Assembly (NCBI GenBank): GCA_043228905.1
Contig: JBHGNT010000014.1
Coordinates: 16,492,001 to 16,556,000, forward strand
Reading direction: 5' to 3'
DNA: 64,000 nt
From: Azolla caroliniana
Taxonomy: Eukaryota > Plantae > Polypodiophyta
In this document: positions 35,118 to 64,000 of the stretch, piece after piece
How the letters are laid out: every line of letters begins with the position of its first letter
How positions within the stretch are numbered: the first letter of the stretch is position 1
Translations under genes and position numbers: made by a program
The notes under the pieces: model-generated
What the model was told of the DNA's origin: nothing
What the model saw: the letters and a program-made list of their open reading frames with translations, nothing else
Databases searched by the model: none

Positions 35118-35151
<34 letters not shown>

Positions 35152-36311
35152 CAACACAAGATGGGGGATGAGTAAGTATATTAAAATAGCATTATCATCA
35201 TCAAAAACAAAAATACCCACAATGAGGTATATATACATCTCATGTGCAAAGGTGCACATGTGTGAGTAGAATATAGGTACTAATGTGTAAGTCCTATATT
35301 AAATGTACTTAGGAGTGGAGGATTTAGAATATCCCACTTAAGTACAAGGTCCTATTTTAAGGCGTTATAGTCAACACTTCTGACTAGATTCTATCTAGGT
35401 AACTATGAAATTACATTGTTGACTAACTAACTAAACTAAATTGAGCTTGATCTCTCAACATGCCCCCTCAAGCTCAAGTGTGAGGCGTCCGACATCCGCT
35501 TTGGCTTTTGTCGGCTTCTTGTGCTTCCGTCCGGCCTTCGGCTTTCTTCGCCTTGGCAATCTCGGTTCCTCCCCCTCAAGCCGGTGACGAAGGCTTGTAG
35601 TGTGTGGGCGAAGGTCAACTACTTCCACCCATCGTGGGTTACGAGCCGCTTTGGTGGAGCTCTTGGGCTCTTGTTCGGCCGCTACCTTCATCGCAAAGGC
35701 ATAATGATGGGCCATATACTCGTTGTAGCCGAGCCGAGTGACGAGATTCTTCTCTCTAGAAGAGCATCAAAGTTTTTCGCTCGCCGATGTGAGCACCTTC
35801 TTTACTCCGGGTGTACGCATGATGGGTACACCGAACTCACTGTCTAGTGAGGGAGCCTAAACATCCGAATCACTGTCGTCGGGGTGATCGACTTCGTATT
35901 CGGGCATCTTACCTTTGCCTTTGTCCAAGTTCATACTTGACCGCGGCGTGCTTGGGTCGCGTGGGGGCTCTTGTGGCCCACTAGGCTTTGCCATAATTGG
36001 ACTTTCTTCGAACATGTGTTTGAAGCGATCTCCATCTTCTACCTCTTGTTCGACGTATTCTGGGTCGAGCGGAGTCGGAGTCGAAGTTGCCTCTGGTGCG
36101 TACCACGATGCGGACTCGTCGAAGACTATGTCTCGACTTACCTGAACCGCTTGGGTAGAAGGGTTGTAGCACTTGTAGGCCTTCTTCTTGGACGAGTATC
36201 CTATGAGGATACATTCCTCCGACTTCGCGTCGGGCTTCTGTCGTTGTTTGTTTGGGATGCGTACATTCGCAATGCTTCCGAACACCTTGAGATGCGACAG
36301 GATCGGCTTCC

Positions 36312-39300: not shown

Positions 39301-41773
39301 AAAACTTGCACCTCGGTCCAGGAAATGCATTTTCCTTGGATATGGATCAGACGGCGAAATGGGATACCGACTCTGGGACCCCGAACGCAGACAAATCGTT
39401 CGAAGTTCGGACGTTGTGTTCAACGAGTCGGCTATGAATCCATCAGTCGAAAAACCGATCGAAGTCCGAAGGGTAACATTCTCCGATGTGCCGACCCTTC
39501 AAGAAGGCCCCGCTCTCAACACACGGTCAGCTTCACGGGTAGCTGAACCTTATACTACCGACTCGGACAACTCTGACTCGGCACAGCCGAATGATTCGGT
39601 TTCGGACCATCCGACCTCGATACCCGATGCGACCAGTCCAATCATACCTCGACGATCCGGGAGACTGTCGCAACCTCCGGAGAGGTATTCTCCTGGAATT
39701 TTCTTCACCGACGCCGGCGAACCGACGTCTTACGAAGAAGCATCGACATCTGTCGATTCGGCCACCTGGCATCTGGCGATGGAGTCGGAAATGCACTCCA
39801 TTCGGGCAAACAAGACTTGGGATCTGGTCGAATTACCTAGGAACCGACGTGCTCTTCCTTGCAAGTGGGTTTATCGACTAAAAGAGACGTCTGATTCGAC
39901 CACCCCAAAGTACAAGGCCAGATTAGTTGCGAAGGGCTTCCGACAAGAATATGGCGTCGACTTCGACGAGATTTTTTCACCAGTGGTGAAAATGACAACC
40001 CTTCGTTTTCTGCTCGGCGTCGTGGCAGCCGACAACTTGGAGCTGATTCAGCTAGATGTCAAAACAGCCTTCCTCCATGGTGATCTCGAGGAGGAAATTT
40101 ATATGGAGCAGCCAAAAGGCTTCGTGGCAACTGGCCAAGAACATCTAGTCTGCCGACTCAGGAAGAGTCTATACGGCCTCAAACAGGCACCGCGACAATG
40201 GTACAAGAAGTTCGACGACTTCATCCAATCGATCGGCTTCTCCAAAAGCGATGAGGACCATTGTCTCTTCACCAACACAGCTCAAGATGGATCACCCATC
40301 TTCCTCATCATTTACGTGGACGACATGCTAATTTCTGGACGCCACGCACGCGAACTTGCCGATCTCATTCGGCAACTGCGGTTGAAGTTTGCCATGAAGG
40401 ACCTCGGTCCGGCACGACACATCCTTGGCATGAAGATTAGTCGGCATCGCGATAAACGACATCTCTTTTTGTCTCAGACTGACTATATCGGACGTGTCTT
40501 GGAACGCTTCAACATGCAATCAGCCAAATCTGCTTCAACCCCGCTCCCAATGAATCTTCGGCTCTCTCAGCGAGACTGCCCGACATCCGGCCCGGAGGGG
40601 GAAGATATGAAGTCGGTACCGTATGCACCGGCAGTCGGCTCCCTTATGTACCTGATGGTCGCGACACGGCCTGACATCTCTCATGCCGTAGGAGTCGTTA
40701 GCAGATTTATGCACAATCCTGGCCGATCGCATTGGAACGCAGTCAAGCATGTGTTCAGATATCTGGCTGGCACAAAAGATCACGGCATTCTTTTCGGTCC
40801 GAACCGAACCTCAGGCGTAGTCGGTTACACCGACTCGGACTTCGCCGGCTGTATAGACAGTCGGAAATCAACAACCGGATACTGCTTCAAATTCGGCAAT
40901 GGAGCAATCTCGTGGAAGTCGAAACTTCAGGAGTGCACAGCGACCTCAACGACCGAAGCTGAATATGTAGCTGCGTCCGACGCAGCAAAAGAAGCTTTGT
41001 GGCTCGGTCGGCTGGCGCACACGTTTCGACAAGTCGACCATGACTCGGCTCCAGTTGTCTACAGCGACAGTCAAGGTGCTGTTGCCTTGTCGAAAAATCC
41101 GGTTCACCACAACGCCTCCAAACATATCGATGTCCGATATCACTTCGTTCGGGACTGCGTCATTTCAGGGAAAATCGGTCTAGAGAAAATATCCACAACC
41201 GACAATGTCGCAGATGGAATGACCAAGTGTCTTTCGGCAGACCGTTTTCGGTCTCTTCGGCATCAGATGGGCGTAACGACAAACCAGTCCGGTTAGAGCC
41301 GGACACAGAGCAGGATGGTTCCCGACAACCGACATCAGTTGCTTAATGATCGGCTTCAACTGTTCCGACCCGACCAGTTCGGTCTTCTGCCTTCGGACCC
41401 TGCCGACTCGAACAAAGCTGATATGTCCGAGAACCTAAGTCTATACCTGTAATCTAAGATAACCCATGTATACGCCCATTACGGGGGAGTGTCGAATACA
41501 TGTGTATAATGGACGTATTCACACTATCCCGTTTTGGCCATTTATGTAATTAGCATAAAGGGTAGTTGCCCTAAGTCGGTCACTATATATAGTGACCTTG
41601 TAACCTTTTTGTAAGGTTGGTTGTTGTATTATTTGCTTTATGAAATAAAGACTCTTTTGTGCCTCTCTCTCTCTCTCTCTCTCTGTGCAACGACCTACAT
41701 TCTGTCATACGCAGGGAATAAACAGGAATCGAGTGCTTCTTGATCTTCCGCACTGACGACATTGCTTACAACA
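36312..41773 (+). mobile_element. Copia-C: intact young Ty1/Copia (Tnt1/Tork-like), 5462 bp
   Basis: 284-bp LTRs (36312-36595, 41490-41773) with no difference found by eye; perfect TSD CTTCC; PBS tRNA-iMet 36598-36609; PPT GGGGGAG; single uninterrupted gag-pol. Confidence 0.97.
37283..41296 (+). CDS. Copia Gag-Pol polyprotein (1337 aa)
   Basis: KFDGSNF, Zn knuckle CNYCKKPGHIKADC, PR WLLDSGASFH, INT HHCC plus DVCGP/TDNGGEF/NGIAERMN, RT YVDDM, RNase H TEAEY...HIDVRYHFVRD...ADGMTK. Confidence 0.95.
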   Translation: MASTSGSSEMSLRKFDGSNFNFWKEQMQDYLIVKGQIDPIENEEPPEGYKPMEWQKLDRIVRATTRMHLSESVYFTVQSCTTAFKLWKTLSDTYEKKVAATKMFLIRRLYNLRMKESDSVQAHLNEYESISSQISSQGTAIEDELRAMILMSSLPSSWETFVTTVCNASTTAVKYSEVMSAILTEAARRKSFAKDSTDDAYVVQGSTDRSNIRGRDSSRPPNNQRRRSQSRDNRICNYCKKPGHIKADCRALKNKNNKKSGRHEEINYVSSSADVLPDDPNILSIENPVGSEVLLTTEESSTWLLDSGASFHVTPHRSQFRQYTIRHSDSVRVGNSQHCDIIGIGTVELNLAGGSTLVLHNVRHVPELSRPLISVGQLDEDDIRAGFSSGGWTLHRGNLLLARGPKIHSLYPLHVTLREGNLFLVDIPVSSLWHRRLGHLSKAGITHLSRAGYIPKLSFSDHQFCEHCQYGKQVAASHPTSAPRETRPLDLVHSDVCGPMPHQSLGGASYFVSFIDDSTRKVWAYPIRTKDRVFSIFTDWLAMVENQADRKLKCLRTDNGGEFKSEEFVKFCRQRGIRREFTAPHSPEQNGIAERMNRTIQERIVSMLQHSRLSDGFWAEALLTAVHIINMSPSRPLGLQIPQELWIGSKPNYDKLRTFGCEAYALIPKDDRRKLAPRSRKCIFLGYGSDGEMGYRLWDPERRQIVRSSDVVFNESAMNPSVEKPIEVRRVTFSDVPTLQEGPALNTRSASRVAEPYTTDSDNSDSAQPNDSVSDHPTSIPDATSPIIPRRSGRLSQPPERYSPGIFFTDAGEPTSYEEASTSVDSATWHLAMESEMHSIRANKTWDLVELPRNRRALPCKWVYRLKETSDSTTPKYKARLVAKGFRQEYGVDFDEIFSPVVKMTTLRFLLGVVAADNLELIQLDVKTAFLHGDLEEEIYMEQPKGFVATGQEHLVCRLRKSLYGLKQAPRQWYKKFDDFIQSIGFSKSDEDHCLFTNTAQDGSPIFLIIYVDDMLISGRHARELADLIRQLRLKFAMKDLGPARHILGMKISRHRDKRHLFLSQTDYIGRVLERFNMQSAKSASTPLPMNLRLSQRDCPTSGPEGEDMKSVPYAPAVGSLMYLMVATRPDISHAVGVVSRFMHNPGRSHWNAVKHVFRYLAGTKDHGILFGPNRTSGVVGYTDSDFAGCIDSRKSTTGYCFKFGNGAISWKSKLQECTATSTTEAEYVAASDAAKEALWLGRLAHTFRQVDHDSAPVVYSDSQGAVALSKNPVHHNASKHIDVRYHFVRDCVISGKIGLEKISTTDNVADGMTKCLSADRFRSLRHQMGVTTNQSG

Positions 41774-44700
41774 CTTCCGTCCGACGTGGAGCTCGTAGGG
41801 AGTTAGCTCATGGACTCCATTGGTGGTACACCGATTCATGAGATAGACGGCCGTGGATGCCGCTTCGGCCCAATAGAAATTCAGCATGTGCTTCTCATGC
41901 ATCATGGCGCGTGCTACCTTGAGTATTTGCCGATTTTTCCTTTCGGCGACTCCATTTTGTTGGGGGCTTGTGTCGGCACGAGAATTCTCTTCGAATGCCT
42001 TCACTTTGGAGGTAGGAGGTGAATTCATCGGAGAAGTACTCCTTGCCTCCATCCGATCGTAGGCATCAAGTGTGCCGACCAGTTTCTTTTTCGACTTGCC
42101 CCTTGAGCTTTTGGAAGTGGGAGAGCACTTCGCTTTTCTTCTTCATCGGGTAAATCCACGCGTAGCGCGAGTAGTCGTCGATGAATGTTACGTAGTATCT
42201 GCATTCGCCAATCATCGGCGTTGGAGCCGGTCCCCATACATCCGAGTGTATGAAATTGAGGAGGCCTTTGCTTGTGGAGCTCTCCTTCAGGAATGGGAGT
42301 CGATGTTGTTTTCTGAGTTGACACGCTTCGCATACTGGGTCGACTCATTTCGACTCGAATGTCGGAAGTCCGATGACGACTCCCTTGGTTTGCATCACTC
42401 GTAGCCGTTGGAGGTTTATGTGGCCGATTCTCTTGTGCCACAACTCAATGCTTGTCTCGGTTTTGAGACCTTTGGCATACATTGCTGATTTCACCTCGTT
42501 CGAATCGAGGATGAACATTTGGCCGTCTCTCCGCCCCTTAGCTATGAGTCGACCATCTTTCTCAATGAAACAACCTTCATTGTTGAAGCGGACTTGCATG
42601 CCTTGCTCCACGATTTGGCCGACTGAGACCAAATTCTTCGTTATTGTGGGCACGTGCAAGACATTCTTGATGCAAGTTTGCTCGCCTTCTTTCCCGAATG
42701 GGACATTGCGGATGTGCCGAATGGGGTGCGTGGTGTCATCTCCCGTCTCTATGAAGCCGGGTCGATCCGGCGTTCGTAAATCACGAAACCACTCTTCGTG
42801 AGATGTCATGTGATGTGAGGCGCTAGAATCGATGAACCACATGTCTTCCGAGTTGGAGGTGCTTGTGGAGTTGGAGGCCGACATAGAGTTCGCTCTATGC
42901 CTCATTACAAATAGTCCACCATAATCATCGTATTCGGAGTTGACGGCGTAATTCGTGAGTTGTCGACTTGTGGAAGCCGACGCGTTTCTTCTTTTTCGGC
43001 ACTCCTCGCGATGGTCGATTTTGCCGCAATAATTGCAAGTTGCGGGCCTCGTTTGCCGACCATGTTCAGCGTGGAAGCTCCCCCTTCTTCCAAAGGTTCC
43101 TCGATGGCTTCCGTGAAGGTTTGAGTTCCCTTCATGTGATGGGTCGAATTGGCCTCTTCTACCGCCGTGACCTCCTCCTCAGCCACCGTCTGAATTCGAG
43201 AAGAACATTTGTCCTTCCGACGTCTTGCTTTTGGTTCGGACGTGGTTCTCTTCGACCAATAGCATTGATTAGAGGTCGAAGAATGAAGGAGGTTTTTCTC
43301 TCGCCAAGATTGCTGTCCGTAATGGATCGAATCGTTGTGCGAGGCTACCCAAGCATACTTGAACCATCTCGTCTTCGTCGACGTTTATTTTGATGGAGCC
43401 AAGCGAGTTGCAAATGCTCTTGATCTTGGCGGTGTAGTCCGACACATACATGTCTTTTTGCTGAATGTTGTTCAACTCTTGTCGGAGTTGAAGCTTTTGT
43501 GCAGTCGTGTTGGCGGCGAATATTTTCTTTAAGTTCGCCCACGCTTCTTTAGGCGTGTTGGCATCTCGAATGTGGCTAAGCATGTGGTCGTGGACACATG
43601 TTGCCAAACAATACATGACTCGACTCGCCGCTTGCTCCCATGTTGCGTAGTCGGCATTCTTTGAGTCGGGTCGATTTTCTTGAGCGTCGTTGATGTAGCT
43701 CCAATACCCTCGGCCGACGAGGTATTGGGTCATCTTGTACTCCCAAGATGAATAATTGCTCCAGTCTAGCTTTTCACTAGGGAGCATACTACCCATTTGT
43801 GTGTTCATGTTGATTAGTGTCTTCTCTTCTTTTACTTTTCTTCGTTCGATCACGTACACGTGCTACATAGCGGCACTACGGTAGCCGATAGCCAGATTTT
43901 GTCGTCGGCGTCTCGAACACACAATCACAGAGTCGGGTGGGCTTAGTGGATTTTCTAAACCACATGCTCTGATACCATGTTAAGAATTAGGAGATTAATT
44001 AAGCAAGGATTAATTAGTACCTAATTATGTGATTAGTTGATAAGCGGAAGATTAAGTGATATGTGTGTGTATGTGTGTATGTTTGAGAGAGGAAGAGAGA
44101 GAGAGAGATACAACACAAGATGGGAGATGAGTAAGTATATTAAATTAGCATTATCATCATCAAATACAAAAATACCCACAATGAGGTATATATACATCTC
44201 ATGTGCAAAGGTGCACATGTGTGAGTAGAATATAGGTACTAATGTGTAAGTCCTATATTAAATGTACTTAGGAGTGGAGGATCTAGAATATCCCACTTAA
44301 GTACAAGGTCCTATTTAAGGCGTTATAGTCAACACTTTTGACTAGATTCTATCTAGGTAACTACGAAGTTACATTGTTGACTAACTAACTAAACTAAATT
44401 GAGCTTGATCTCTCAACATTTGGGCATACTTTCTTTGTCTTTCGGTCAACAACTTTGCACCAAATCGGATTGCATACCGATTCTTTTCTTTGTCTTCTTG
44501 GTTTATCACCCATCCAATTCCAATCGGGCTTGTATCCACTGTCACATATATCGGGGTACCTTCGGTGTAGTTGTCTTTTCGCAGTGCCGGAGCTTCCAAT
44601 AATAGTTTCTTTAGCTTTTGAACCGCGTAGGTATGCTCATCTTCCCATTCGAACTTCGTCCTTTTCTTTAGTAATCCATACAATGGTTAAGCAACATGAG

Positions 44701-46873
44701 CATAATGTGGAATCCATATGTGATAGAATGACATGCTCCCAAGAATCTTCGCACCTATGTTTGAGACACACATTCTTCTTTCATCTCTTGAATAGCGTTC
44801 ACCTTGGATGGAGATGGCTTCCGGCCATAAGACCCACATAAGTGTCCTACTACCAATATTTCTGGTTGACCGAATGCAGACTTCTCTCCCGAAAACATGA
44901 GATTTGCATCCTCAAGCTTTTGCAACACCTTCTCGCTATCCTTTATATGATCGATGACGAATCTTCAGCAACCATCTTCATCTTTCGATTCATCTTTCTC
45001 TTCCACCAAGAATCCTTTGATTGGAATGTCATCTAAGAAGGGCATTGTGATATCAAGGATACAATACCTCAACACTTTATTCATGGCATTGACCATGTGG
45101 GCTATAGAATTTGTCGCCCCAAGGTGCACATCCTTACCAACCCAATTGGCGTCCTCATTGTCGTTATGTCTCTACTATCGACAACCAATTGAAACTGATC
45201 ATAGCTTGAGTAGAGATCACCAATGGAATAGATCGATCTTCCCGCGAAGGCTTCGGCAAATTCATCCACGCTTGAACCAATTCCGGCATTTTGGATCGTC
45301 ACCTTGTTGACGGGTTGGAGATCTTGAATAAAGCATAAGGACCCATTCTTCTTTGGCACCGTAAACCATCTATTAGAGTAGGGAGCATTGGATGACTCAA
45401 GAATTCCCATCCTAACCTTTTCCTTTAGAAGCTCAATAAACTTCGGAATGTGAGCTCTTGGAACCGGTATCGGCTTGAGGTTCCAAGGTACATGCGGCAC
45501 CATAAATATCACCATCGACTCTATCATCTTCGGGTCAGCACATCCAATCTCTTGTGGGGAGAAGGCGAAGGCTTTCCCATGTCTCTCAAGCATTCCGCGG
45601 AACATTTGCTCCTCTTTAGGGAGGAGGAAATTCTCCTTTCCAACTTGTAGCTTCCCTTTTGTCTCTTTAGTAAAGACATGACCTATTGCCTTTGGATCCC
45701 TTAAGCTTGGATCATTAGAAACTTCCTTCATCTTTTGCTAGCTATCTTCCGGTAGCGGAACCGCAACTGGCTTGATCTTTCTATCCACTGTTTTATATTT
45801 TGTGTTGACTTCAGCTTCCTCCATCAAGATGCCTCGGTGATATTCATCGATGATAGCGTACATGTTGACGGAGTTAACCGAAATCTCATGTCGATTGTGA
45901 GGATAACTCAAGTCCACGACTTCCTCGATTTCGCCGATGGTGTCGTTAAATGAGGCTTCCTCTAGAATATGAGGTACGAATTCTTCTTCTCCTATTATGC
46001 TTTCTTCTTTCAGCGCCTTCTCGAAGTCTTGTGTCCGACGCTTGTACTTCTTGTTGAGTAGTGTTAGTTTACATGCGCCACTAGGTGTGACACATGTTGC
46101 TTCTCCTTGCAATCCACGTGCTCTACTTCCTTGTGGGGACTTATGATTTCTTGGACTATTTGTGCCCCATGCTTCAATAGTCCGTTCTAAAAATCTGAAG
46201 ATTCGCCTCCAAGGTTATCTCGGTTCCTTTCGTGATTGGCTCGCACCATTAGGAATTGAACAGATCTTTCGTTGTCAAGGCTCTTGACTCGCGCAAAAGA
46301 TGCTCCATTATCGAACACCTTGGTCTCCATCCGGGACGATGTGATATACAGTTGTCCTAGGATGATAGGATGTGAAGCTGAGTCTTGCACGAAGAAGTGT
46401 TGATCCATCTCCACATCTCCAATCGTGACTTTAACATTGGGGCAAGCTCCGTACAAGTCTTCTGTGCCCTTCGTTGCCGCTCGAATCTTCCATCCGTGGT
46501 TTGTATTAATCGGCCATCTTCCCTTTTTGTAGAACTCGGTCAACATGAGGTTAATCTCCGAACCATGGTTAATCAAAGCTACCATAGTCTCTTTCTTCTC
46601 CCCGATCGTCACCAACGTTTTCGTTGTCGCTCTTTCTCCTCTTTTGATCTTGCCATAGTTATGACTCTTGTTTTCACCTCCTCTTCATCCGCTTGTTGCT
46701 GCTTCGGCTTAATCAAGTCCACGATAGTATCGTGGAACTCCTTCTTAGCGATCCCAAGTAGCTCTCTCAAAGTAAGGTCGACATGATTGTCTAAAACATT
46801 ATCCTCAAGGACCTTCCACAAGTCGGTTGTTTGTTCTATGTCCGACCTTACCTTGTAAGTCGGCATTGCTCGT

Positions 46874-49800
46874 TGTCGCGTTGTTACGCGCGTGCATGTA
46901 GAAAGAGGCGGGACCGCGGGGGCCTTGAACCGAGGAGCAAGAGAGAGAGAGAGAGAGAGAAGAGGAGAGGAGAAGAGATTTGCAGATACGCAGAATGGAG
47001 AAGGAAAGAGAAAGAAACGGAACACTTAATTACAGTAACAGTCGATTACAATATCAAGAGATTACAAACTCTGACGATTACAACCGGCAAGGCGGCGATG
47101 GACCCGACACGGGGATCCTACTCACGCACACAGACAGAACACACTAGACCCCTAAAACAAGAAGCGTAGAAGGGAGTGCCTCTGCTGGCAGCACACGGGC
47201 TACCCACGAAGCAGAGGCGTCAAACTCCCAGCACTCACAAAGAATGACGATCGGAGGAGGAGAGAGAGCTCAACACTCGGTCCTGCAACACTTCGTCCTC
47301 CCTATCGCGCGATACCTTTTCTTCCTTCTCTCCCTCCTTAAATAGTTCGCAAAAAGGGAGACCCTTCTTCCTTAGTCCAATTGCTTTTTTCCCTGTCCCC
47401 TTCGACAGAGATACGCACAAATCCCCTAATAAATGTGTACTACCTAGTATTTGCATCAGCCGACCTAATTACGAATTATGTACAAAATATCAATTCTCGC
47501 GTCCACCCGTGTAAGAGCCGGTTCATGCGCCCTTTTCTCCGATTCCACCCATGGCCGGTTTTCTTCACGACATCCACCCCCACCAAACCGCGCATCCACC
47601 GGCATGCACCAGAGACGGGTAGATACCGAAGAAAACCGGCTTCACTTGTCGCTCTCCGATTCTTGCCGGGCTCGAACCGATCGTCGTCGTCGCTATCGCT
47701 CGCTAGCTCCGGCTCGTCTTCGAACCGATTCTTGAACGCTTTGATCTGCTTTCCGGCCACCAGTACCGCTAACCGTGTCTCGTCGAGTTCCGCTAGGTGG
47801 TACGTGCCGTTGTCGTTCACGCTCGTCACCGTGTAGGGCCCGAACCATCTCCTAGCGAACTTTCGCACCGCCTTGTGCTGATTGTCGAGGCTGTTGTTGT
47901 ATACCAAGACCCAGTCGCCTTCCTCGATCTTCTTTGGTCGCAACCAGTGCGTCCGGTTGAACCGGGTCTTGTTCTGCTCCCTTGTCGCCCGCAAATTTTC
48001 CTTCTCCCGTTTCACGTCCTCCGGCCTCCGCTCGAGTTGCCGAATCCGCACCGCCAGCACCTCCTCCCGGCTCATCTCGTCCTTCCAATCTACCGCCGCC
48101 CATAAAGAAACCATTCGTTCAACCGGCATGATCGGCTTTTGTCCATACATCAGCTCTGCCGGCATAAACCCTGTCACCGAACTGTGCGTAGTTCGGTCCA
48201 CCCATAGCGCGTAAGGAAGGAGCCGTGGCCAATTCCCGACCTGCCCTCCGCATGCACGCACCAACGCCTTTACGATCGGCCCGTGCCCACATTCTACCTT
48301 CCCGTTCGCCTCCGGATTGTACGCCGTAGTGAGGGAGAGTTTGACCCCTAGTTGGTCGAACAACTCCTCAGCTTCCCGCGCATCCAGCTCTCCCTTGTCC
48401 GCCACGATCCTCCCGACGCACCCGTACCGACACACTACCTCTTCGATCAGGAACCGGCATACCGCCACAGTTGTCTTGTTCTGCAGTGCACGGCCTTCCA
48501 CCTGGTTCGTTAAGTCTTCCCGTGCAAGCACCAGGTATCGCATCTGTCCTACTCTCATCGACATCGTCACCAAGTCCACCATCCACTTGAAATGGACTGC
48601 AGGCGGGTAAGTCGGGTGTAGCTCGTCCCGATGTCAAACTATGGAGTGCATCTGACAGCTTTCGCAAGTCGTTACGAATCGATGCACGTCCTGGTACAGC
48701 CCCGGCCACCAGTACTTCTCCTTCAGCTTCTCGAACGTGGCCCACGTTTTGCAGTGCCCGGCCCAGGGACTCTCGTGAAATGCCGCCAATAGTTCCTCCT
48801 ATTCTTCTTTCTTTGCCACTACTCGGAGCGGGATGCCGTTTCTTTTCTTTGGGTGCCTCCATATGCACCCGTCCCGTAGGAAGAATCGGTACGCCTTCTT
48901 CTATACCTGGCTCGCCTCTTCTCTTGTCCACGATGCGTTCGACGTCATCGCCCGTAGGAACCTCCCGATTTGGAGCCACTCCCCATCGTACCTGCTTTTG
49001 TCAAATTCGTTAAGCGCCGGAGTGTCCCCTTTCCTCGTCGTCACATTAGCCGACCCAAAGAAGTCCTCGCCGACTTCTTCGTCATCCGAAACCATGCCGT
49101 CTTCGTCGTTGAACCTTGCTCTCGAAAGCATGTCGGCCGTGGCGTTATCCTTTCCGGAGATGTGCCGTATCTCCGGGTTCAGGGACTTAATGTACGCTAT
49201 CCACCGGAGCATTGCTAGGTCCAACGTCGCGCATCCGAAAACCATGCCGAGTATTGGCAGGCAGTCCATCTCGATTGGTAGCTCCGTCCCGATCAGGTAG
49301 TCCCTGTCGGCCTTGATTGCCAAAACGATACCCCATAGTTCGTGCTTGACTTGGGCGTATCCTCGCTGTCGCTCACTCAATACCTTCGCCCCGAACTGGA
49401 TCGGGAACTGTGCGCCATCCTCGTCCTCCTGGTTGATCACCCACCCGATCTCGGTCGGGCTCGTGTCCACCGTCACATAGATGGGGACTCCCTTACCGTA
49501 AACCGCTTTACAGAGAGCTGGCGCTACCATAAGCGCCTCCTTTAGTCTCCGGACCGACTCCGTATGCTCCGTCCTCCACTCAAAGCTACGCCCCTTTTTC
49601 AATAGCCCGTAGAGGGGTTCCGCGACATGTGCGTAGTGCGGGATCCAGATGTGGTAGAACGCGCATGCTCCCAAGAATCTGCGGACCTCCGTGACCGACC
49701 TGCAATCGTTCCTCATCGCGGAGATGACCTCTACCTTTGCCGGAGACGGTTTCCTACCGTAAGGCCCGCACAGGTGTCTGACCACCAAGATCTCCGACTG

Positions 49801-52800
49801 CCCGAACGCCAATTTTTCTCCGGAGAAGGTGAGTCGTGCGTTTTTGAGCCTTTGCAGCACCTTCTCGCAGTCGGTGATGTGGTTCACGACGAACCTCTGG
49901 CATCTGTTTGGCCCGACAGTCTCGTCCGCATCATCCACCGGACACCCCTTTATCAGGATGTCGTCCAAGAATGGCATGGTGATGTCCGAGATGCAGTCCC
50001 TCAGCACCTTGTTCATTGCGTTCACCATATGCGCCACCGAATTCGTCCCCCCTTGTGGTAGGGTACACATCCGTACTAGGCCGAGAGGGGTTCACATCGT
50101 CGTGATATCCCTACTCTCCACGGCTAGCTGGAACTGGTCGTACCCCGAGTATAAGTCACCAACCGAATAGATCGACCTTCCAGCGAAGGCCTCCGCGAAC
50201 TCGTCTATGGTCGGTCCGATTTCTGCATTACGGATGGTCACCCTGTTGACCGGTTGCAGGTTCTGAATGAAGCGTAGCGTGCCGTTCTTCTTCAGCATCG
50301 TAAACCAACGATTCGAATACGGGGCACTCGACGGTTCAAGGATGCCCATCTCCACCTTTTGCTTCAAAAGCTCCATCAACTTCGGGATGTGAGCTCTCGG
50401 CACCGGAATCGGTTTGAGATTCCACGGTACATGCGGTACCGTGAAGATCACCATCGGTTCGACAATCGTCGGGTCCACGCACCCAATCTCCTCCGGCGAG
50501 AACGCAAAGGCTTTCCCATGCCTTCCGAGCATTCTCCGAAACCTGTCCTCCTCCGCCGCAGTAGAAAGCCACCCCCACTGACCGTAGCATTATGTCGGTG
50601 AACCGGTGCCCTATGCCAGCCGGATTCCGTAAACTTGGGTTTGACGCGACCCCTTTTATTCGCTCCTCGCTGCCCTTCGGCAAGGGTGCCGCGTTTGGCC
50701 TCACCTTCCGGTCCACAGTCTTGTACTTTGTATCCACGCGGGCCATCCGATCCGACCCGATCCTTTCCCTGAAGTCCGTGATGACTTCGTACATTCCCAT
50801 CGAACTAATCGGAATGGTCCGGTCTTCTCTAAGGTCTTCACCGATCACCTTTCGTAACTCGCCCAAGGTGTCATAAAAAGAGACCGCCTCCATGGCGCCG
50901 CTGATTTCTTCGTCGGGGGAGAGGACTCCGCATCCCCTGAGCCGCTCCTCCGCTCGCTTCCTCTCCTGGCCGCTGACGCCGGCTATAGTACAACCTCCGT
51001 TTTCGGAGAACCAAAACTTCCTACCTACTGAACATGTGTGGGGTTCTTCCGATACGTCCAGACTACTGCGGCCCCACGCCTTGATAGCCCTCTCTAAAAA
51101 TCCCCTCAGTTGTTGCCGTCGAGGGTCTCGCGATTCCTCTCATGGTTCAGACGTACGGTCATGAATTTGACGGAATGCCGACCGTCCTGGCTCTTGATGC
51201 GCGCGTACGCCGAACCGTTGTCCAGCACCTTCGTCTCCATGCGTGTTGCTATAATGTATGGTTCGCCGAGAATCACCGGGCGTGAGGATGTTTCCTGCAC
51301 GAAGAAATGTTTATCTATCTCAACGTCACCGACCTTTACGCGTATGTTCAAGCATGCACCATGCAGCTCCTCCGTAGCATGCGTCGCCGCGCGTATCTTC
51401 CACCCATGCTTGGTGTTGATCGGCCATTTACCCCTCTTGTAGAAATCCATGGACATCAGGTTGATTTCAGATCCATGGTCTACCAAGGCCACCACCGGTT
51501 CCGGAACTTCACCGATCCACACAGGGGTTTCCGTAGTTGCCCTGGTCCAATGCGGCTTTGCATAGTGGCTTTCCGCCAACTCGTCTTCTAGGGCCGTTTC
51601 TTCTAAGTGCATAGTCCGCACCTCCACCGGCTTCTCCGGTTCTGGCTCCGTCGATAGCCTCTTCCGCTTCACCAAGTCTACGATGGAGTCGTGGAACTCC
51701 CTCTTGGTGATTCCCAGCACCTCCCGCAACGACAACTCCACTTTACTATCGAGCATCTGCTCTTCAAGGACCTTCTGTAGGTCTGTTGCTCTCTCAATTT
51801 CGGTGCTCAACCGAAACCCCGCCTGCTTCTTTCCGTCCAGCGCGCCTGGGTTGCCGGCACCGGTCGGTTTCGGTCTGAATCGGGTCTCGTACCTCTGAGG
51901 GGGACCGACCCCCCCGGCCTTTCCTGCCCTTTTGTCTTCCACCAGAACCTCGTAGTTCTGGCAAGCGGCTTCTACGAAGCCTATTTTCTCTTCGACCGGA
52001 TCGTCCCATCCGGTGACCTCCTGAACCTGCTGCTCCGCGCGGTCCGCCTCTTCCTTCTTCAGCCGAACTCCGGAGAGGCCTTCTAGCACTAGCGGCCAGA
52101 ATCCGAAGTCCTTCACCTTTCGGGTCTCATCACCCCCGACACGAATTCCCGCCTACACTGAGTAGTTAACGACTTCTACATGCCGTGCCGCGGCCTCTTC
52201 CATCAACCTCTTCATTCCGCCCCGCCCCGTATTTAGTTCTAGGGCTCTCCGGGTGTCGCTCGCGTGGACCCGCCCGTTCCAGAGGTACACCACGTTGGTC
52301 CTGAGCGCGTCGGCGAAATCCATGCAATCCTTTCGAATGTGACCGATCGCGTCACACCATATGCACCGCTGCCCAGCCGCCGACCTCCGGTCGCGAGGTT
52401 GTTTGCCGTTGTCTCTCCGTGCCTATGCGATCTGCGGGTCGCGCACCATCTTTGTCAGCTCCTCCGGATGGGCCTCTGACCACGTCATTCGATGCCGACC
52501 CCGACTCCAGCCAAATTCGGGTCTCTTCCTTCCTACCAGCTGGCACCGATACCGGCTCCTCGAGCCTCCTTAGCGGAACCGGCCTTGACCTCGACGAGCT
52601 TTCGTCGCTCCAATCGCGCCGTTTGTCGAAACGGCTGCAGACCCGTTTTACCACGACCTAGTCTACCGTGAGCCCTTCGTCCGTTTCCAATAGGGGACCC
52701 ACCTTTTCCCTGTCGAGTGCGTCCACCGACTTGACAAACAGTAGTACTCGACTCGTTTTGAGCACGGTCCGGTCTAGCGTCGACAACCGCGCGAACCGTT

Positions 52801-53322
52801 TTTCGAACTCCTTTAGGAGCGCCGACGTGTTCCTCCCTTTTCCGGGGCTTTCCACCCACGCCATGAAGTCCCGCCTCGACAGCCGAAGCGAGTCGTCAAA
52901 CCCGTACTTCTCGAGGAGCTGCAGCTCGAACTCCTCCCAAGTCTAGCATCCGGCCATCACCTCGAGCACCTCCGCGTGGATGCTTGGCGTCACCACCCGA
53001 GGGAATCCGGACAACCGCCTGTCCATCGGGATATCCCTCATGATCATTTCGGCCTGGTAAGCCTCCAAATAACTTGTGGCGTCTTTCCCTCCGAACCAGC
53101 CTATAGTGCCGACGATCGATTCAATGGCTCTGTCGAGGGTACCTGTCCCCTCATGAGCGCTTACCAGCCAGTCGACGGCTACCACCATTACCTCTGCTAG
53201 CTCCGATCCCCTCATCTTTCGACTCCTTTGCCGCCTTTTCATGTCGGGTTCACCAAAGATGTCGCGTTGTTACGTGCTTGTTGTAGAAAGAGGCGGGACC
53301 ACGGGGGCCTTGAACCGAGGAG

Positions 53323-53366
<44 letters not shown>

Positions 53367-53973
53367 AGAGGAGAAGAGATTTGCAGATACGCAGAAGGGA
53401 GAAGGAAAGAGAAAGAAACGGAACACTTAATTACAGTATCAGTCGATTACAATATCAAGAGATTACAAACTCTGACGATTACAACCGGCAAGGCGGTGAT
53501 GGACCTGACACGGGGATCCTACTCATGCACACAGACAGAACACACTGGACCCCTAAAACAAGAAGCGTAGAAGGGAGCGTCTCTGTTGGCAGCGCACGGG
53601 CTACCCATGAAGCAGAGGCGTCGAACTCCCAGCACCCACAGAGAATGACGATCGGAGGAGGAGAGAGAGCTCGACACTTGGTCCTGCAACACTTCGTCCT
53701 CCCTATCGCGCGATACCTTTTCTTCCTTCTCTCCCTCCTTAAATAGTTCGCAAAAAGGGAGACCCTTCTTCCTTAGTCCAATTGCTTTTTTCCTTGTCCC
53801 CTTCGACAGAGATACGCACAAATCCCCTAATAAATGTGTACTACCTAGTATTTGCATCAGCCGACCTAATTACGAATTATGTACAAAATATCAATTCTCG
53901 CGTCCACCCGTGTAAGAGCCGGTTCATGCGCCCTTTTCTCCGATTCCGCCCATGGCCGGTTTTCTTCACGAAA
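46874..53973 (-). mobile_element. Gypsy-C: full-length degenerate tRNA-Trp-primed Ty3/Gypsy nested in Gypsy-B gag (LTRs 46874-47572 and 53260-~53973)
   Basis: Paired ~700-bp LTRs; PBS TGGTGAACCCGACATGA (minus, ~53239-53255); gag-PR 51094-53242; RT/RH 48901-50893 (LPQGGTNS, PFLDD); INT 47476-48800; scattered stops and frameshifts; TSD not cleanly preserved. Confidence 0.93.
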
Positions 53974-55983
53974 TCTCTTTTCCTTTCTTCACAAGTTCAT
54001 CAACTTCCATTCGAGAAGGTTGGTTCGATCCACCGGGCTTCATGCTTGTTTCTCCTATCTCTTTTCGTGGCGTAGGTTGGGCTTGTCCTTCTTTCCTTGC
54101 ATTCCTCGTATTGTGACGCTTTGATGTGCCATCTTCTTCACCGGTTCTTTTCCTCTTCTCTTCGACAAGAGCTTCATAGTTGTCACACACAACCTCCGCA
54201 AAGCTCGTGTTATCGTCGACTGGATCCGACCATCCGGTAACTCGTCGCACATTCCGATCAGCAAGTTGTAGATCCTCCAAATCGATTTTGCCTTTCTTTT
54301 CGCACTCAAATACCGTTGGCCAAAACCCAGCTCCCGGCTTGATCATCTTTAGGTTCTCTCTTCCAACTCGTATCCCGGCCAATGCGGCATAGTGCATGGC
54401 TTCTACATGCCTTGCATCTTCCTCTTCTATGATCTTATTCAGCCCGCCTCTTCCAAAGTTCACTCGTAGTGGCTTCCGGGTCTCGCTCGAATGAATCATG
54501 TTGCCATCCAAATAGACGACGTTCTTGCGAATCGCGTCTTGCAAGTCAGTGCACTCCCTTCGCGAGTGCTCGAAACTGTTGCACCACACACATCTATACG
54601 CTTCTTTTACCTTGGGCCCGCGTCGACCTAAGTTGGCGAACGATACCGCTTCAAATTTCTTGGAGAGCTCTTCGATTATGGATTCTTCCATCGCTTTCTT
54701 GTCGAAATTGTTGATCAGCTTGCTAGGCTTGATCGTCATAGGCGCTTTCCTCCTCCATGATTGTGGATTCTCCATATTAGTTTCCTCTTGCCATTGTCGA
54801 TGCTTATCAAGATGGCTACAAGCCTTCTTCACCGCCGCCCAGTCCGCTACCAAACCATTTGGTTGTGTTTTGTCCTCCAAAAAGTTGCCCAATTCTCGTC
54901 AATCTTTTGCATCCATTACCTTTAGGAATTGTAGGACTTTATCTCCATCGAGAACTCGTTGATTAACATTCAGAAGTCGATTGTACTTCTGGTCGAATTC
55001 GGCATATACTCCAGACGCACACATATTCTTGCTTTTCTTCTCGATCCACGTCATTAGTGTATGTCGAGTCATCCGTGATGCGTCTTCAAGCATGTATTCA
55101 GTGAGAAGCACCTTTTCGAACTCCACCCAAGTTGTGTGCTCGTTTTGGATCTCCATGACATGCTCGCGGATCCCTGGTTCCACCACATGTTTGAAGCTAG
55201 TAATTTGTTTGAGATCGTTGACATCCCTCTACTACATCTCGTTCCGATAGGTAGCAAGAAAATTCGTGATGTTCTTGCCACCAAATCGTCAAGCTATCTC
55301 GACTGTACGATCAACAACTTTGTCAATTAAAGCTTCTCGATCTCTCACCTTCAGCATGTATTCCACTACGGACAACATACCTTTCATTAATTCCTCTCCT
55401 TGAGTTCTACTTGTCGAAGCAATCGTTGTACTTGACATCCTCCCTACCGCCTCTTCACGTTGGGTTCACCACTTAATTATGTCGTGAGAATCCGTCATTA
55501 TGTGTGGATCGTGAGACGGAACCTCCGGGGTTATGGACCAGAACGAATTAGTACACACACGCACAACACAAGCAAGATTCACATATAAGATAAGTAGATG
55601 AGAGGAAACATTCTTTTATTGCAAAAGAAATCGATTCTTTATAAACTTAGAATCATGTTACAATGGATTGGATATGAAAATGAGAGATAAATCTTTTAAA
55701 GAAAGGAGCCAACATCCATATAAGGAGTGGTCCAATATGAATATGAGAGATTATTCTTGAAAGGAAGGAGCCAACAACCATGTAAGGAGTGGTTCGATAT
55801 CAATATGAGAGAGATTTCTTCCCCCAAGGAATGAGAGAGAGAAGAAGAAGAAGAAAAAACAAATTACAGGGAAAAAATGTAACTTATATCGAGCTCTTTG
55901 TTGATCCCCCTTCCCAATGTTACTTTGCATCTCAACCCACACGACGACGAAGAAGAAGAAGAAGAAGAAGAAGAAGAAGAAGA

Positions 55984-58403: not shown

Positions 58404-60193
58404 TATCGTAGTGTAATTCGCACACTACGTGAAAATTGCATTGTGGTTTCTCCGGATGGGACAAGGAGGAACCGGATGAAGGAGGAACCGGCAAGGAAGA
58501 CCCAGTAAGGAGAACCGGTCAAAACCGGATGGAGGAACCCGCAAGGAGGGCCCGGTAAGAACCAGATAAAGGAGAACCGGCAAGAGCCGGATAAAGAAGG
58601 CCGGTCTCTCACCGGATGAAGAGACAAATTTATAAATAGAAGAAAAGATTGTTACATGCATAGGGCAAGATTCAAACCCTGTACCTCCACGTAGACAAAC
58701 CCCAACCTTACCATTGTACTAACTTATCCTAAGTGTTCTAAATATAGATTTAATACGTATACGACCTTTCTTTACGCCTACCTTTATTAAAAGGTAAGTC
58801 ATGCATTTTTAGAATGCGTGAATACTTTATTTATAAGAAGAATGTACACCAATAAAAAATTACTCATGCACATCTAGCGAGCATGAGCACTATATTTAGG
58901 AAATAAAAGCATAGTGTAAAAAGCAACTCATGCACATTTAGTGTGCATGAACACTTTAGAAAAAGCATGAAGCTATGCTTAGCCTTTTCCATCCTTATAT
59001 AAGGAGGAGAGAAAGATGTATGAGGTTGTTGATTATTTTTACAAGGATTGATCAATCTAATATATTCGTGGGATTCACGAGTTTATCATAAAAATTCTCT
59101 TTCTTACAATCTAAATATTGATAAAATACACTAAAAACGTGGGATTCATAAGTTTTATTTCTTACTTCTCTCTCTACCTATTCATAACTAGCCTTATATT
59201 GTATTCTGCTTTCTCCTAGTCCAAAACCTCAGTGGTTCCCACCGGACTCACGCAACGATCTAGAGCCGAAAGGCACGACACAAGTGGTGAACCCGACGTG
59301 AAACCGGGTGGCAAGGAGATGGAAATTCAACCAGAGGCTAACAACATGATGGTGATGTTCGAGCGGATGCTACAAGACCAACGCGCTGTCGTAGTGTATT
59401 TTGTACACTACGTGAAAAACGTATATAGTATTAGATTCAATAAAAAATGAAGAAATAGAAGAAAATAGCAAAATAAATGGAACATGCATAGGGCAAGATT
59501 CAAACCTTGCACCTCCATGTTAATAATGTAATGTCTTACCATTACACTAGCATTTCATTAGTGTTAAAGCATAGATGTCCCACATAGAAAGGTAAATTCA
59601 CGCTAGGATAAACATTAGAAAAACGCATAACAAAAGAAAAAGCTACACATACACATCTAGCGTGCATGATAAAAAACGCACAAGTTAGAAAAAAGCATGA
59701 TCACTTTAGATAAAGCATATAGTCTATCTATAGGAAAAGCATGGGGTCTATAGTTAGAGAAAAAGCATGGATTACTAAGACTTCCTCATCACTACATAAG
59801 GATGGGGAGCACAATGTAATTGTGTGTGAAAAATATTTGGAAACTAGATATGTTTCTAAAAAACACCAATTAATAAACTATACTCGTGGGATTCACGAGA
59901 ATTCTATATCATTCTCTTTCAACCGAAGTTTATATTCTTATATTCATATTGATTAATCTAATACAATACACTCGTGGGATTCACGAGTTTGCTATAACTC
60001 TTTCTTACAACATATTTATATTCTTATTAGCCTTAAAACTCTCTTCTTCCTAGTCCAAAACCCCAGTGGTTCCCACCCGACTCACGCAAACGATCCGGAG
60101 CCGAAAGGCACGACAGCGCGATGTCGGAGATTGCAACGGCAGTAGAGCGGCTCGTGCAAGGGAACGGGCAATTCAATGGGAAAATGTTGTCCG
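58404..60193 (+). mobile_element. Gypsy-E: 5' LTR (58404-59280), tRNA-Trp PBS and gag start, interrupted by a related solo LTR (59387-60115)
   Basis: Both LTRs run T(G/A)TCGTAGTG...GCCGAAAGGCACGACA; PBS TGGTGAACCCGACGTGA at 59285-59301; gag MEIQPEANNMMVMFERMLQDQRA continues after the solo LTR as MSEIATAVERLVQGNGQFNGK; solo-LTR TSD GCGC. Confidence 0.85.
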
Positions 60194-62998
60194 CCGGAAT
60201 AGTATGTCTTCGTCGCATGTATTAGTTTCGACCTTCCGTTCTTCACTATCACCTCCCGTCTCTTGGGTCTTACATCGGTTCTCAGACGCAATTGCCCAAG
60301 TCTTTGGAACAAGTGTGGAGAAAATTTGGCCGTCGTCATTGTTTGTATTATCTTGGTCCTTCTCTTTCTTTTCGCCACCATCCATCTCTTGGGTCTCACG
60401 TTGGTTCCCAGACGCAACTGCCCAAGTCTCTAGATGAAGTGTTAGGAAAGTCTCCACATGACCATCCACCATCGACTCATTCATAGTAGGAATCGGCAAC
60501 GGCTCGGCTCAAGCCTAAACCGTTTAGATAAACCGGTTTAGACCGGTTTGGCGGTTTGGCGGCTCGGCTCGACTCGGCTTAGGTTTGAGTCGGGTTAAAC
60601 GGTTTGAGCTCGGCTCGGCTCGGCTCAAGTTGTGCTAAACCGGCTCAAACCGGCTAAGCCGATTATTAAAATTAGGTCACAGTAAAAGTTAAAACACTTA
60701 AAAAGTTAAAACACTTAAAAAGGTTAAAGTCTACAGTCTTAAGACTTAAGTCTTACACTACGACTCACAATCTACAGTCTACAGAGATCAGAGAGAGAGA
60801 GGCCAAAACTTCAAATTAATATTCGTTTCCTTCTTGGTTCCTTTCTGCGATCCATCCATATCCACTTTTTCTGGATGCCACAATACCTTTAGCACCTTGT
60901 TATCAGATTCTGCCAAACTGTGTGAAACAAACTACCCTATTTGGCATACAAAAGTGCTATGCTGATAGGCAATGATATCTGTAATTGTCTTAAAAATGGA
61001 TAAAATACTGTGAAGCCCACTAATTTTGTTTAATATCCATCCTGGGAAGAAACCACAAAATGTACTACTTCTTGTTCTCAACATTGCCAACATTGTTCTC
61101 CAATAGTGTGCCAATATGACATGCGCATGGTGTATGACAGTCATTCAATGACTGGTACCATATCAAATCCTATGCTCGGGTCCTCGTGGGAAAGGGAATT
61201 ATGGGACATTCATTACTCACAATAAAGCTTTGGCAGTGGTCTAGCTTGTAAATTGCTAGAACTATGAGACAACATCGTTGTAGTGGTGGAGGATTTGACT
61301 TGAAGAGAATGATCAACATAATGGTACTTAACAATTTGTACTTAATTGCAGAGGATGATGTTATTGAATACTTGTATTTGGACAAGTGAAAATGGTTGGA
61401 ATATAACCAACTCGAACAACTAATGATTTCTTACACTTTTTGAATAGTAAACATTTACATTTTCTCATTGTAAGTTTTCTAGTCTTTTTTAAACTATGAG
61501 ACATTTGTCTTGTTTTTCTTTAAATTCTTTTTCATTGATTTTGTTTTCATGCTATTGTTGGTACTAAAGAGACATTTTGATCCTTGCAAACTGTTTCAAT
61601 CGTCCTTAAATTCACTAATTGTTCAGTGTTTTACTTGTTTTTATCGGTCTTCATCAAGTCTTTAGTGTTTTACTTGTTCACTAATTGTTCAGTGTTTTAC
61701 TTGTTTAGGGTTAGGAGGATTTAACATATATTTCAATTTGTCAAGTTACAATAATCCAAACCGCTTCCCAAACCGCTTTCCAAACCGTTTCCTAAACCAG
61801 TTTAGACTAAACCGGTTTAGCCTAAACCAGTTTAGGGACTGGTTCGGTTCGGTTTGGTTCAAGTTTGAGAACCATTAAACGGTTTAGGCTTAGCCGGTTT
61901 GGCTTGGATAAGGCCAAACCGGCTAAGCCTAAACCGAGCCGTTGCCGATTCCTAATTCATAGCCATCTCCGACTCAATGTTGTTTTTTGTGGCTATTTCT
62001 TCAATCTCATGGGCCTCACACCCATTGACCCTCTTGATCGAACAAGCTTCGATCATGCTTCTCTCTTCGTCGCATGTATTCGTTTCAACCTCCGGCTCCT
62101 CGCCGACACCTTCCATCTCTTGGGTCTCACGTTGGTTCTTTGACACAACTGCGCAAGTCTCCGGAGCATGTGTGGAGAAAATCCGGTCGTGATCGTTGTC
62201 GACGCTTATTGTCTTGTTCATAGCCGCCTCCTCGATCTTGATTTCAGTGGCAAGATCCTTCATCATGTTGATCTCACACTCTTTATCTCCCTTAATGCAA
62301 GTTTCGATTTGGCTTGCTCCATCATCCGTTGTTTCAAACACGACGCATGTTTTGAAACATTCAACCTCTGAAATGGCCGTCGTCGTCCTCAAGTTATCAT
62401 CAATCTTCTTTTCATTTAGGTTGTTTTGTTTAGACGGCTCGACTTCTTTAGATGGTCTCGTTTTCTCTATGATCGGCCTTACCAAGTCAATACCATCAAG
62501 CCATTGATGATGCCTGTCGATCTTGTTGTATGCTTGCCTCATCGCAACCCAGTCCGCCACAAGGTCGTTTGCTTGGGTATCATCTTCGAGGAGAGTCCCC
62601 AACTCTCGTCTATCCTTCATGTCCACGGCTTTTAAGAAGTACAAAGTCTTGTCCTCCTCCAACAACACTTGGTCCATGTTGGGGAGATGACTAAACATTT
62701 TGTCAAACTCGTCGTACACCCTCGAGGTGCTCATCTTCTTATTCTTCTTTTCTATGCACTTCATCAAGGCATGTCGAGTCATCCTCGACAAATCTTCCGT
62801 CATAAACTCTACTAATATCGCTTTCTCGAACTCCGACCACGTTGTCTTCCCTTCTTGAAGCTCGATGACGCTCCTTTGGGTGTTGTTGGCGACCACTCTC
62901 TTGAAACTTGTGATTTGACGTGCTTCAAACACGTCCCTCTGATTCATCTCCCTTTTATGCATCAAGGAACTTCGTAATGTTCCTTCCGTCAAATTGAC
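60194..62998 (-). mobile_element. Gypsy-F: gag-derived ORF of the B/C-type lineage with a repetitive C-terminal extension, split by a hAT insertion
   Basis: ORF 61952-62992 aligns by eye with Gypsy-B gag (TTWSEFEKAIL..SRMTRHALM..DMKDRRELG..DW). After removing the 1476-bp hAT plus one TSD it continues in frame as 60173-60486. Confidence 0.75.
60487..61954. mobile_element. Non-autonomous hAT-superfamily DNA transposon (1468 bp)
   Basis: 21-bp perfect TIR TAGGAATCGGCAACGGCTCGG; 8-bp TSD ATTCATAG on both sides; dense AAACCG/CGGTTT subterminal repeats; no transposase ORF. Confidence 0.92.
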
Positions 62999-64000
62999 TG
63001 TAAAAGGTAACGTGCGGAAGCAAGTATGAAGACCGAACAGAAGGAAGAAAACTCAGGTTTAATGGAGAGCTTGAGCTTACGCAGTATACGCGGGAGAGAC
63101 AGAGAGAGTGAGAGAAAACACAAGAGCTATATTCAACAAAAAATCTCGATTCACTACTCTCTATACATATGTGTGTTCCATGAACACTTTTATACAAGTC
63201 CTCGAAGGACTGACTGAAGTACTGACCGTACTTCAATGCTCTTTAAGAGCTCCTATACTAACTCCCAAATATATTCCTCACGGAATATCTTTCCTAACGG
63301 CCTCCCGGTTTACGAACTCGGCCTAACCGATCGGTCCCAACCGATCCGGTCCTCGGCTTCTTCAGCCGATCCGGCCGATGTTGAGCTTGTCTCTCAACAC
63401 TCCCCCTCAAGCTCAACTCGAGGCTCTTCGGGATCCTCGGGCTCATAGCTCCGGTTCCTCCTGGCTTCACGCCTCGTTCGCGCTCCTCAACCTGTTCGAC
63501 TCCGCGCGCTTCGACCCTTCCGGTCGGCTTGTATACTCATGCGGCCCTTATCAACTCCTGCTGCCTTTTCTTCGGCTTGGGCCTCGGTTGATTCAGCGTA
63601 TCTGAATGAAACAACCGAACCGACTCGGCTACCTCCGATCGGTTTTCGCTCTCGTCCGAGTTGGCTGTCTCCAACTCGTCTTCGGACTTCTCGCCCTCGG
63701 TGGCGTTATCTTCCCCATGCGTGGTTGGCTTCGGCTCTCTCCTTCGGCTGCTCCCCTTCTGTCCGCTTTCGGACTTTTCCGCGGGTCCGCCCTCGGCTTC
63801 TTCAGCCGATCCGAAGTCGAACTCGACAACCGAGTTAACAACCGAGTCAACCGACTCGGTGTCGTGGCCTCCGCTCCTTTCCTGCTGCTTTGCTTGGTCG
63901 TTCAGGATTGTTCTCCCCCTCAAGTTTGGCACGTTGAGGTGACGCAATCCGAGCGCACCAGAGAATTGCCGCAACCCTTCCAGACCAAGAGGCTTTGTGA
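62999..64000 (-). mobile_element. Copia-D: 3' end (RNase H tail, C-terminal extension, PPT, 3' LTR 62999-63399); continues beyond the window
   Basis: TKPLGLEGLRQFSGALG RNase H end; PPT TTGAGGGGGAG; LTR TGTTGAGAGACAAGCTCAAC...TTTTACA, with termini like Copia-A and Copia-B. Confidence 0.85.

Follow-up and report, generated by a model that had tools for sequence, protein, structure and literature searches.

Our analysis points to a programmed ribosomal frameshift between the protease (PR) and the reverse transcriptase (RT) of a plant LTR retrotransposon lineage, of which two copies lie in the window, the whole 64,000-nucleotide stretch of Azolla caroliniana DNA analysed here. Judged from the sequences of its relatives, the lineage very probably carries, after the protease, a signal for pseudoknot-stimulated -1 slippage on G GAU UUU that would yield Gag-PR-RT-RH-IN as a minority product (RH, RNase H; IN, integrase). 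To the combined reading, in which the knot-driven PR/RT shift is lineage-wide and one branch has switched from -1 to -2 through a GAU to GUU change and the loss of one spacer base, we assign a probability of roughly 0.6. The class of mechanism is classical; what appears to be new, as far as we have searched, is its position behind the protease in an LTR lineage of plants, together with the apparent switch from -1 to -2.

The predicted H-type pseudoknot would stall the ribosome while GAU fills the P site and UUU the A site, and by tandem slippage the Asp and Phe tRNAs would re-pair on GGA UUU. A minority of ribosomes would slip by -1 and, having crossed a linker of about 120-140 codons, read on into RT-RH-IN, while the majority would stop at the end of gag-PR, leaving Gag-PR in excess over RT and IN. 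The pause, the slippage and the excess of Gag-PR are here extrapolated from established frameshift biology. The stop codon beside the heptamer may add to the effect; in this regard, passages of a 2016 review describe that the stop beside the G_GAU_UUU site of PEMV affects efficiency (PMC5009743).

In the window copy, the heptamer G GAT TTT occupies 51103-51097 of the minus strand and is followed by the gag-PR-frame TAG at 51096-51094 (Table 1). The heptamer, 6-nt spacer, stems and stop that a preliminary description had picked out are all present on this strand, and the -1 offset it had claimed is borne out by where the two frames lie, that of PR at 51106-52152 and the one downstream at 50336-51139; homology leaves the latter at about 50550, a frame break of that copy. 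A blind search for H-type knots returns exactly the pairing originally noted, which beats 30/30 dinucleotide shuffles. Plain minimum-free-energy folding of the cassette also recovers stem 1, but with ordinary energy (z 0.43), and an Rfam search with the cassette produced 4 hits (E 1-7), none of them meaningful.

The window copy itself is a decayed element, dead because its LTRs have diverged and many stops have accumulated. One of these, the TGA at 51106-51108, sits in frame two codons upstream of the site, so that this copy is unable to use its own slip site; further stops and frame breaks are found in gag and pol. The TGA had been suspected of being decay, and it is indeed private to the window copy, position 51108 being another letter in 90-98% of the depth in 4/4 sequencing runs. 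The proposed start of the pol ORF at 50893 did not hold up: the ATG there is another letter in 86-92% of the depth in three runs (32% in the fourth) and is no conserved pol start.

Table 1. Features of the window element and of the homologous cassette in the outer element (positions in the window)
Feature	Coordinates	Strand	Evidence or remarks
Slippery heptamer G GAU UUU, gag-PR frame	51097..51103	-	Sequence; identical heptamer at 62/75 sites
6-nt spacer, opening with the gag-PR stop codon	51091..51096	-	29/29 representatives have 6 nt, -2 branch excepted
Pseudoknot stem 1, 5' arm	51084..51090	-	Sequence, H-type search, covariation
Pseudoknot stem 2, 5' arm, within the stem 1 loop	51072..51077	-	Sequence, H-type search
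Pseudoknot stem 1, 3' arm	51060..51066	-	Sequence, H-type search, covariation
Pseudoknot stem 2, 3' arm	51038..51043	-	Sequence, H-type search
Gag-PR open stretch: DUF4100-like region and retropepsin domain (~51109-51558); premature stop at end	51106..52152	-	Frames, Pfam, fold search
-1 frame: linker of ~120 codons and pol start	50336..51139	-	Frame offset -1 relative to PR frame
RT, RNase H and integrase, interrupted by stops and frame breaks	47476..50589	-	Frames, Pfam
5' LTR of window element	53260..53975	-	K2P 0.034 to 3' LTR (3.4% diverged)
3' LTR; polypurine tract before, ACGA after	46874..47574	-	LTR pair
Primer binding site (PBS)	53243..53255	-	Same 13-mer in 27 rows, plus one variant
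Homologous cassette in outer element (A GAU UUU, UAG, 6-nt spacer, same knot)	46134..46196	-	PR 64% identical

The window element is 7.1 kb long, and its PBS at 53243-53255 is presumably a match to tRNA-Trp. The bases next to the LTR ends at 46874, 32006 and 60115 are ACGA, TCGC and GCGC, each read at a single flank. The element is inserted in an outer relative whose pol also lies in the -1 frame, the two forming part of a nest at 32006-57896. Of this outer relative, gag (~53966-55400), PR (46187-46857), RT (split at 44417/35003) and IN (33363-34304) can be traced; it is interrupted three times, by the window element, by a block at 35005-44419 with copia-type sequence and, in the 5' LTR, by a relative on the plus strand. 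A copia-type element (36312-41773, plus strand) has one open frame of 1361 codons and 284-bp LTRs that are 100% identical, indicating a very young insertion. Elsewhere in the window, another LTR pair-like repeat (59061-63052, plus strand) has a similar PBS at about 59280 and a gag-like ORF at 61952-63052 without a protease match; ARAGORN finds a tRNA-Thr(AGT) gene at 5948-6021 of the plus strand, and nearby host genes resemble cullin-3, a RING ligase, an exostosin and a peroxidase, as judged from their translations.

Metagenome contigs were scanned with a peptide motif from the end of PR, a pattern in which the slip site takes no part, and 95 loci were obtained which, together with the two window copies, gave 97 rows. 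A site had to match N NNT TTY within 100 nt in the PR frame and to be followed by what looks like the start of a stem, and 77 of the rows yielded one; removal of two wrong picks (L039, L090) left 75 sites, and two short rows were also removed before clustering at 85%, which resulted in 31 representatives. The cassette recurs in 75 of the 95 protease-motif loci. On inspection, 3 of the 20 rows without a site are chance matches of bacterial type and 3 are contigs cut short, while 8 are deletions or derivatives lacking pol and 6 are degraded; altered heptamers are seen in L038, L062, L064 and L086. Six loci (L017, L079, L021, L035, L060 and L072) run almost directly from Gag-PR into a polypurine tract and an LTR-like start, with neither slip site nor pol, and are probable non-autonomous derivatives of at least two families, as their sequences suggest. 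No viral contig matched in protein or pattern searches, and the pattern search of genome contigs gave 7 matches labelled as bacterial.

The heptamer is conserved. G GAT TTT accounts for 62 of the 75 sites, the others being G GAT TTC (5), G GGT TTT (2), G GTT TTT (2), A GAT TTT (2), G GTT TTC (1) and G TAT TTT (1), and only three rows lack GG, namely both A GAU UUU cases of the window type and L048. Its first base is G in 30/31 representatives, compared with 760/3019 (25%) in the upstream PR-frame background, and this G is the wobble base of codons for Glu, Gln, Ser, Gly, Ala, Arg, Thr, Leu, Val, Met and Trp. The heptamer is of the X_XXY_YYZ type in the upstream frame, in its accepted G_GA variant; sites of the G GAU UUY, G GGU UUU and G GUU UUY types, and heptamers starting with G_GA, G_GU or G_GUU, are given as natural shift sites and variants in passages of the 2016 review (PMC5009743).

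Conservation of the gag-frame stop, which had also been expected, is partial: the codon after the heptamer is a stop in 23/31 representatives (TAG 12, TAA 6, TGA 5), but a sense codon in 8. In one subgroup (L013, L019, L022, L077 and L091) a sense codon follows the heptamer and the stop comes 1 or 5 codons on, inside or before stem 1; the Physcomitrium and Adiantum proteins of this sense-codon subgroup end five residues after xF, mostly in PL.

The spacer measures 6 nt in 29/29 representatives that do not belong to the -2 branch, within the 5-9 nt at which a stimulatory structure is looked for, a result that is favoured by the stem-start rule on which the picking of sites was partly based. The cassette alignment is almost gap-free. 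Stem 1, with 11 pairs over the 31 representatives, is paired in 83.6% of the cells, compared with only 27-43% when shifted by 1-3 columns, and both sides have changed in 9/11 pairs. Its covariation score exceeds 500/500 shuffles and the count of doubly changed pairs alone is matched by 35/500, figures to be read with the caveat that kinship among sequences can by itself beat shuffles. As the rows share ancestry and the majority derives from a single series of assemblies, the alignment cells are not independent events.

In addition, a blind search finds an H-type knot in 26/31 representatives, each better than 30/30 of its own shuffles, and none in the other 5. Knots scoring -24 or better occur at 23/31 sites, compared with 44/6411 positions elsewhere on these contigs. 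For stem 2 the register was picked row by row for best pairing, which is a biased choice; in that register, U-A/C-G and G-C/A-U swaps are seen. In four runs containing the family, the bins of the slip site and the stem 1 5' arm have the highest summed contig depth of 451 bases, a poor measure that lends weak support. Taken together, the conservation foreseen for heptamer, spacer and stems, including stem covariation, is what the relatives display.

The position of the site after a protease depends on the identity of the preceding domain. Pfam support for this domain is weak and sequence searches of the PDB found no protease; a fold search with a predicted model (pLDDT 65, one good model of five) retrieved the RVP domain of Ddi1 and retroviral proteases (best E 7e-6). 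On this modelled fold the domain is a retropepsin, in agreement with the initial annotation, and it is because the domain folds as a protease that we place the shift site after PR. At 51109-51558 of the window, the catalytic motif of the lineage reads DHG instead of DT/SG, and DTG is found in some Riccia relatives.

Protein homologues end where the layout would have them end. Among the 120 near-length homologues listed, 44 end in DF and 4 in NF. Among the 120 longer Gag-PR homologues listed, which include moss, fern and liverwort entries, 68 end exactly in DF or NF, 25 five residues after xF and 1 one residue after VF, while 10 run on, 6 end otherwise and 10 lack the motif. Named relatives come from Physcomitrium patens, Adiantum nelumboides and Riccia, and the nearest named hits are predicted proteins of P. 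patens. Two intact pol proteins contain, by Pfam, RT, one RNase H and integrase only, with no chromodomain or second RNase H. A distant member of the lineage may do without a shift, since P0346, a single ORF-called relative of 1374 aa, has DUF4100, protease, linker and RT all in one frame.

With regard to the reading frame, the downstream pol motif lies in the -1 frame in 50 of the 56 rows with a hit (four +1, two 0), and a frame that stays open over a long distance is found in just two of the six exceptions, L047 and L070. Pol is open for 400 or more codons from the site in 29 rows, 27 of them in -1, 2 in -2/+1 and none in frame 0. Thus, no open DNA copy (0/29) has gag and pol in a single frame, and the -1 layout proposed for the lineage stands for 27/29 open rows, but the preliminary description overlooked a branch whose pol is in the -2 frame.

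This branch consists of two sister families, L047 (site at ~2444, minus strand) and L070 (2497-2504), with 79% identity across 3.3 kb. They share the site C AG GUU UUU and keep a strong knot, and both have a 5-nt spacer (2/2), which is found in 0/29 of the other representatives. In the -2/+1 frame their pol stays open as far as the fetched sequence reaches (815 and 817 codons), whereas the -1 frame is closed; the gag-PR frame is also long and open. In a midpoint-rooted pol tree of 19 rows, chosen for long open frames and de-duplicated at 95% (three were lost for lack of an anchor motif), they form a supported pair (100/100) nested among -1 elements. L091, with G GUU UUC and a 6-nt spacer, is -1 over the 78 codons available.

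With the knot one base closer, AG GUU UUU, a site that permits -2 re-pairing, would be driven to slip by -2 into this long ORF. According to passages of the sources, the same sequence is the -2/-1 site of PRRSV (PMC7618472), and -2 shifting is optimal at spacers 1-2 nt shorter than those for -1 (PMC3458567); the 5-nt spacer and the -2 frame of the pair would match this spacer rule. Given the general mechanism, we regard -2 slippage here as the likelier course, about two chances in three.

The alternative for these two families, that the shift is +1 on the U run through Phe-tRNA or that the frames are assembly errors, is doubtful, though the best placed of the competing explanations. A -2 and a +1 slip arrive in the same frame and are indistinguishable by sequence, and the frame is seen directly in two loci only; UUU UAC in L070 permits +1 re-pairing, whereas UUU GAC in L047 is a poorer match. 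Against assembly errors speak the agreement of two contigs 79% identical with both frames open, the pieces of an L047-like family that cover site, spacer and stem 1 without gaps in three DNA runs, each from a different study, and the matching protein ends in clusters P0142 and P0035 (35 and 4 sequences). In those three runs no piece bridges PR to pol, and L070 itself is poorly covered.

For the lineage as a whole, a frameshift has to be weighed against splicing as in Ogre elements, in which an intron around the gag-PR stop would be removed from some transcripts and PR joined to RT, with TTTTTAG as acceptor. Ogre elements do so according to passages of REXdb (PMC6317226), TTTTTAG is present in the window copies, and run-on forms joining PR to pol exist among gene models of Physcomitrium, Adiantum and Riccia. 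The junctions of these models differ from one another, however, and the 15 entries with PR before RT among the 120 pol homologues listed are all Riccia gene models with inconsistent junctions, as would be expected of gene predictors placing introns in a frameshift layout. TAG follows the heptamer in only 12/31 representatives, and the best AG within -60..+110 is shared by 20/31 and sits inside stem 1, leaving no conserved splice AG in that interval. In place of an Ogre-type non-coding gap the frames overlap, and, in contrast to an intron, the junction region has no stop in the -1 frame. The sole splice-like joint (51045/51209) comes from DNA runs, with one contig each, and results in the wrong frame. 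For want of a conserved AG, and with the pol frame open across the region, splicing is very improbable.

No better placed is separate translation of pol, from a subgenomic RNA or by AUG reinitiation, with another role for the knot such as packaging or dimerisation. A pol-frame AUG does lie 5 codons (L047) and 2 codons (L070) before the site, and reinitiation is possible in these two families; AUGs equally near the site occur in 10/29 rows of the -1 class. Independent initiation is unlikely because the position of the first pol AUG in 18 open rows varies between 6 and 111 codons past the site, and yet the frame is open back to the site and closes within 1-38 codons upstream of it. None of the rows examined shares a conserved pol AUG, so that pol is a long ORF open from the site without a conserved start of its own. 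Separate translation would also leave the conserved wobble G, the U run and the fixed spacer unexplained.

Polymerase slippage on the T run, by which a base added to some RNAs or DNA copies would bring pol into frame without a ribosomal slip, is the least probable of all: there is a run of 4-6 T at the site, and reverse transcriptase slippage at a retroviral shift site is already in print, but the run is short, rows with G GAU UUC or G GGU UUU having only three or four T, the contigs of four runs list no indel across the site, and a 3' knot at fixed spacing implicates the ribosome. Stop readthrough of the Retand or MLV type is excluded by the frame, as frame 0 closes again 3-69 codons on in rows with a site and holds 0/29 of the long ORFs.

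If correct, the programmed frameshift would fill in the ORF layout, listed as 'not determined', of a major retrotransposon lineage of mosses, liverworts and ferns, and would add a -1 pseudoknot signal to the recoding of plant LTR elements, where the 2016 review names +1-frame cases only. The 31 natural variants provide a ready set of shift sites, stops and stems on which plant ribosomes can be studied. Moreover, the -2 branch would provide a natural knot-driven -2 frameshift in a eukaryotic retroelement and, as -1 and -2 members share one knot, a test of the mRNA-tension (spacer-length) model on natural sequences.

Among known systems, the lineage looks like a non-chromovirus Ty3/gypsy group resembling Phygy of REXdb, which is suggested by its domain content, conserved PBS and NCGN-type flanks. 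As described in parts of PMC6317226, Phygy elements are likewise short and have no extra ORFs, chromodomain or aRH; they are listed with a tRNA-Trp PBS and a 4-bp NCGN target-site duplication, to which the conserved PBS and the single flanks seen here may correspond, and the 7.1 kb of the window element fall just below the 7.7-10 kb given there. Protein relatives in Physcomitrium patens are about 50% identical over the PR region, whereas the relatives found here also reach a fern and liverworts. In the same parts of PMC6317226, the polyprotein organisation of Phygy is entered as ND, and no lineage has overlapping GAG-PROT and RT frames, overlaps being confined to GAG versus PROT (Tcn1, Selgy and some SIRE). 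A split of Gag-PR (ORF one) from RT-RH-IN (ORF two) is as such already known in plants, from Ogre and Retand (Tat), the only lineages named there with a GAG-PROT/RT split (PMC6317226); theirs is an intron-containing gap or a single in-frame stop, whereas here the frames overlap at a slip site with a knot.

Our literature search, with Repbase, GyDB and subscription papers outside its scope, found no account of a post-protease slip signal, and no papers were found on 'DUF4100'. In Rous sarcoma virus the protease lies at the end of Gag, and pro-pol shifts are known from MMTV and HTLV. Sections of PMC7466625, PMC2864245, PMC5014426 and bioRxiv 2022.06.16.496473 contain nothing on the PR/RT junction. 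As regards plant elements, the relevant part of the 2016 review names only +1-frame cases as of 2003 (PMC5009743).

The closest functional parallels lie elsewhere, and are taken from parts of PMC5009743. In Rous sarcoma virus gag-pol, a knot-stimulated -1 shift likewise makes RT and IN rare products; that signal belongs to a retrovirus, with another heptamer and knot and no sign of homology. PEG10 and other Ty3/gypsy gag/pol signals also combine a heptamer with an H-type knot, but precede the protease and are found in animals. Dianthoviruses and umbraviruses share the G_GAU_UUU heptamer type with a stop at or near the site, and use a bulged stem-loop with long-range pairing, as against the compact local H-type knot predicted here. 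For -2 shifting, the natural cases named in PMC5009743 are phage Mu, arteriviruses and Trichomonas vaginalis virus 1. Among the arteriviruses, the nsp2 site of PRRSV has the identical 8-nt AG_GUU_UUU of L047 and L070 and a long ORF in the -2 frame; as passages of PMC7618472 describe, it is stimulated by a protein and involves no RNA structure, whereas in the two retrotransposon families a knot at 5 nt would act as the stimulator.
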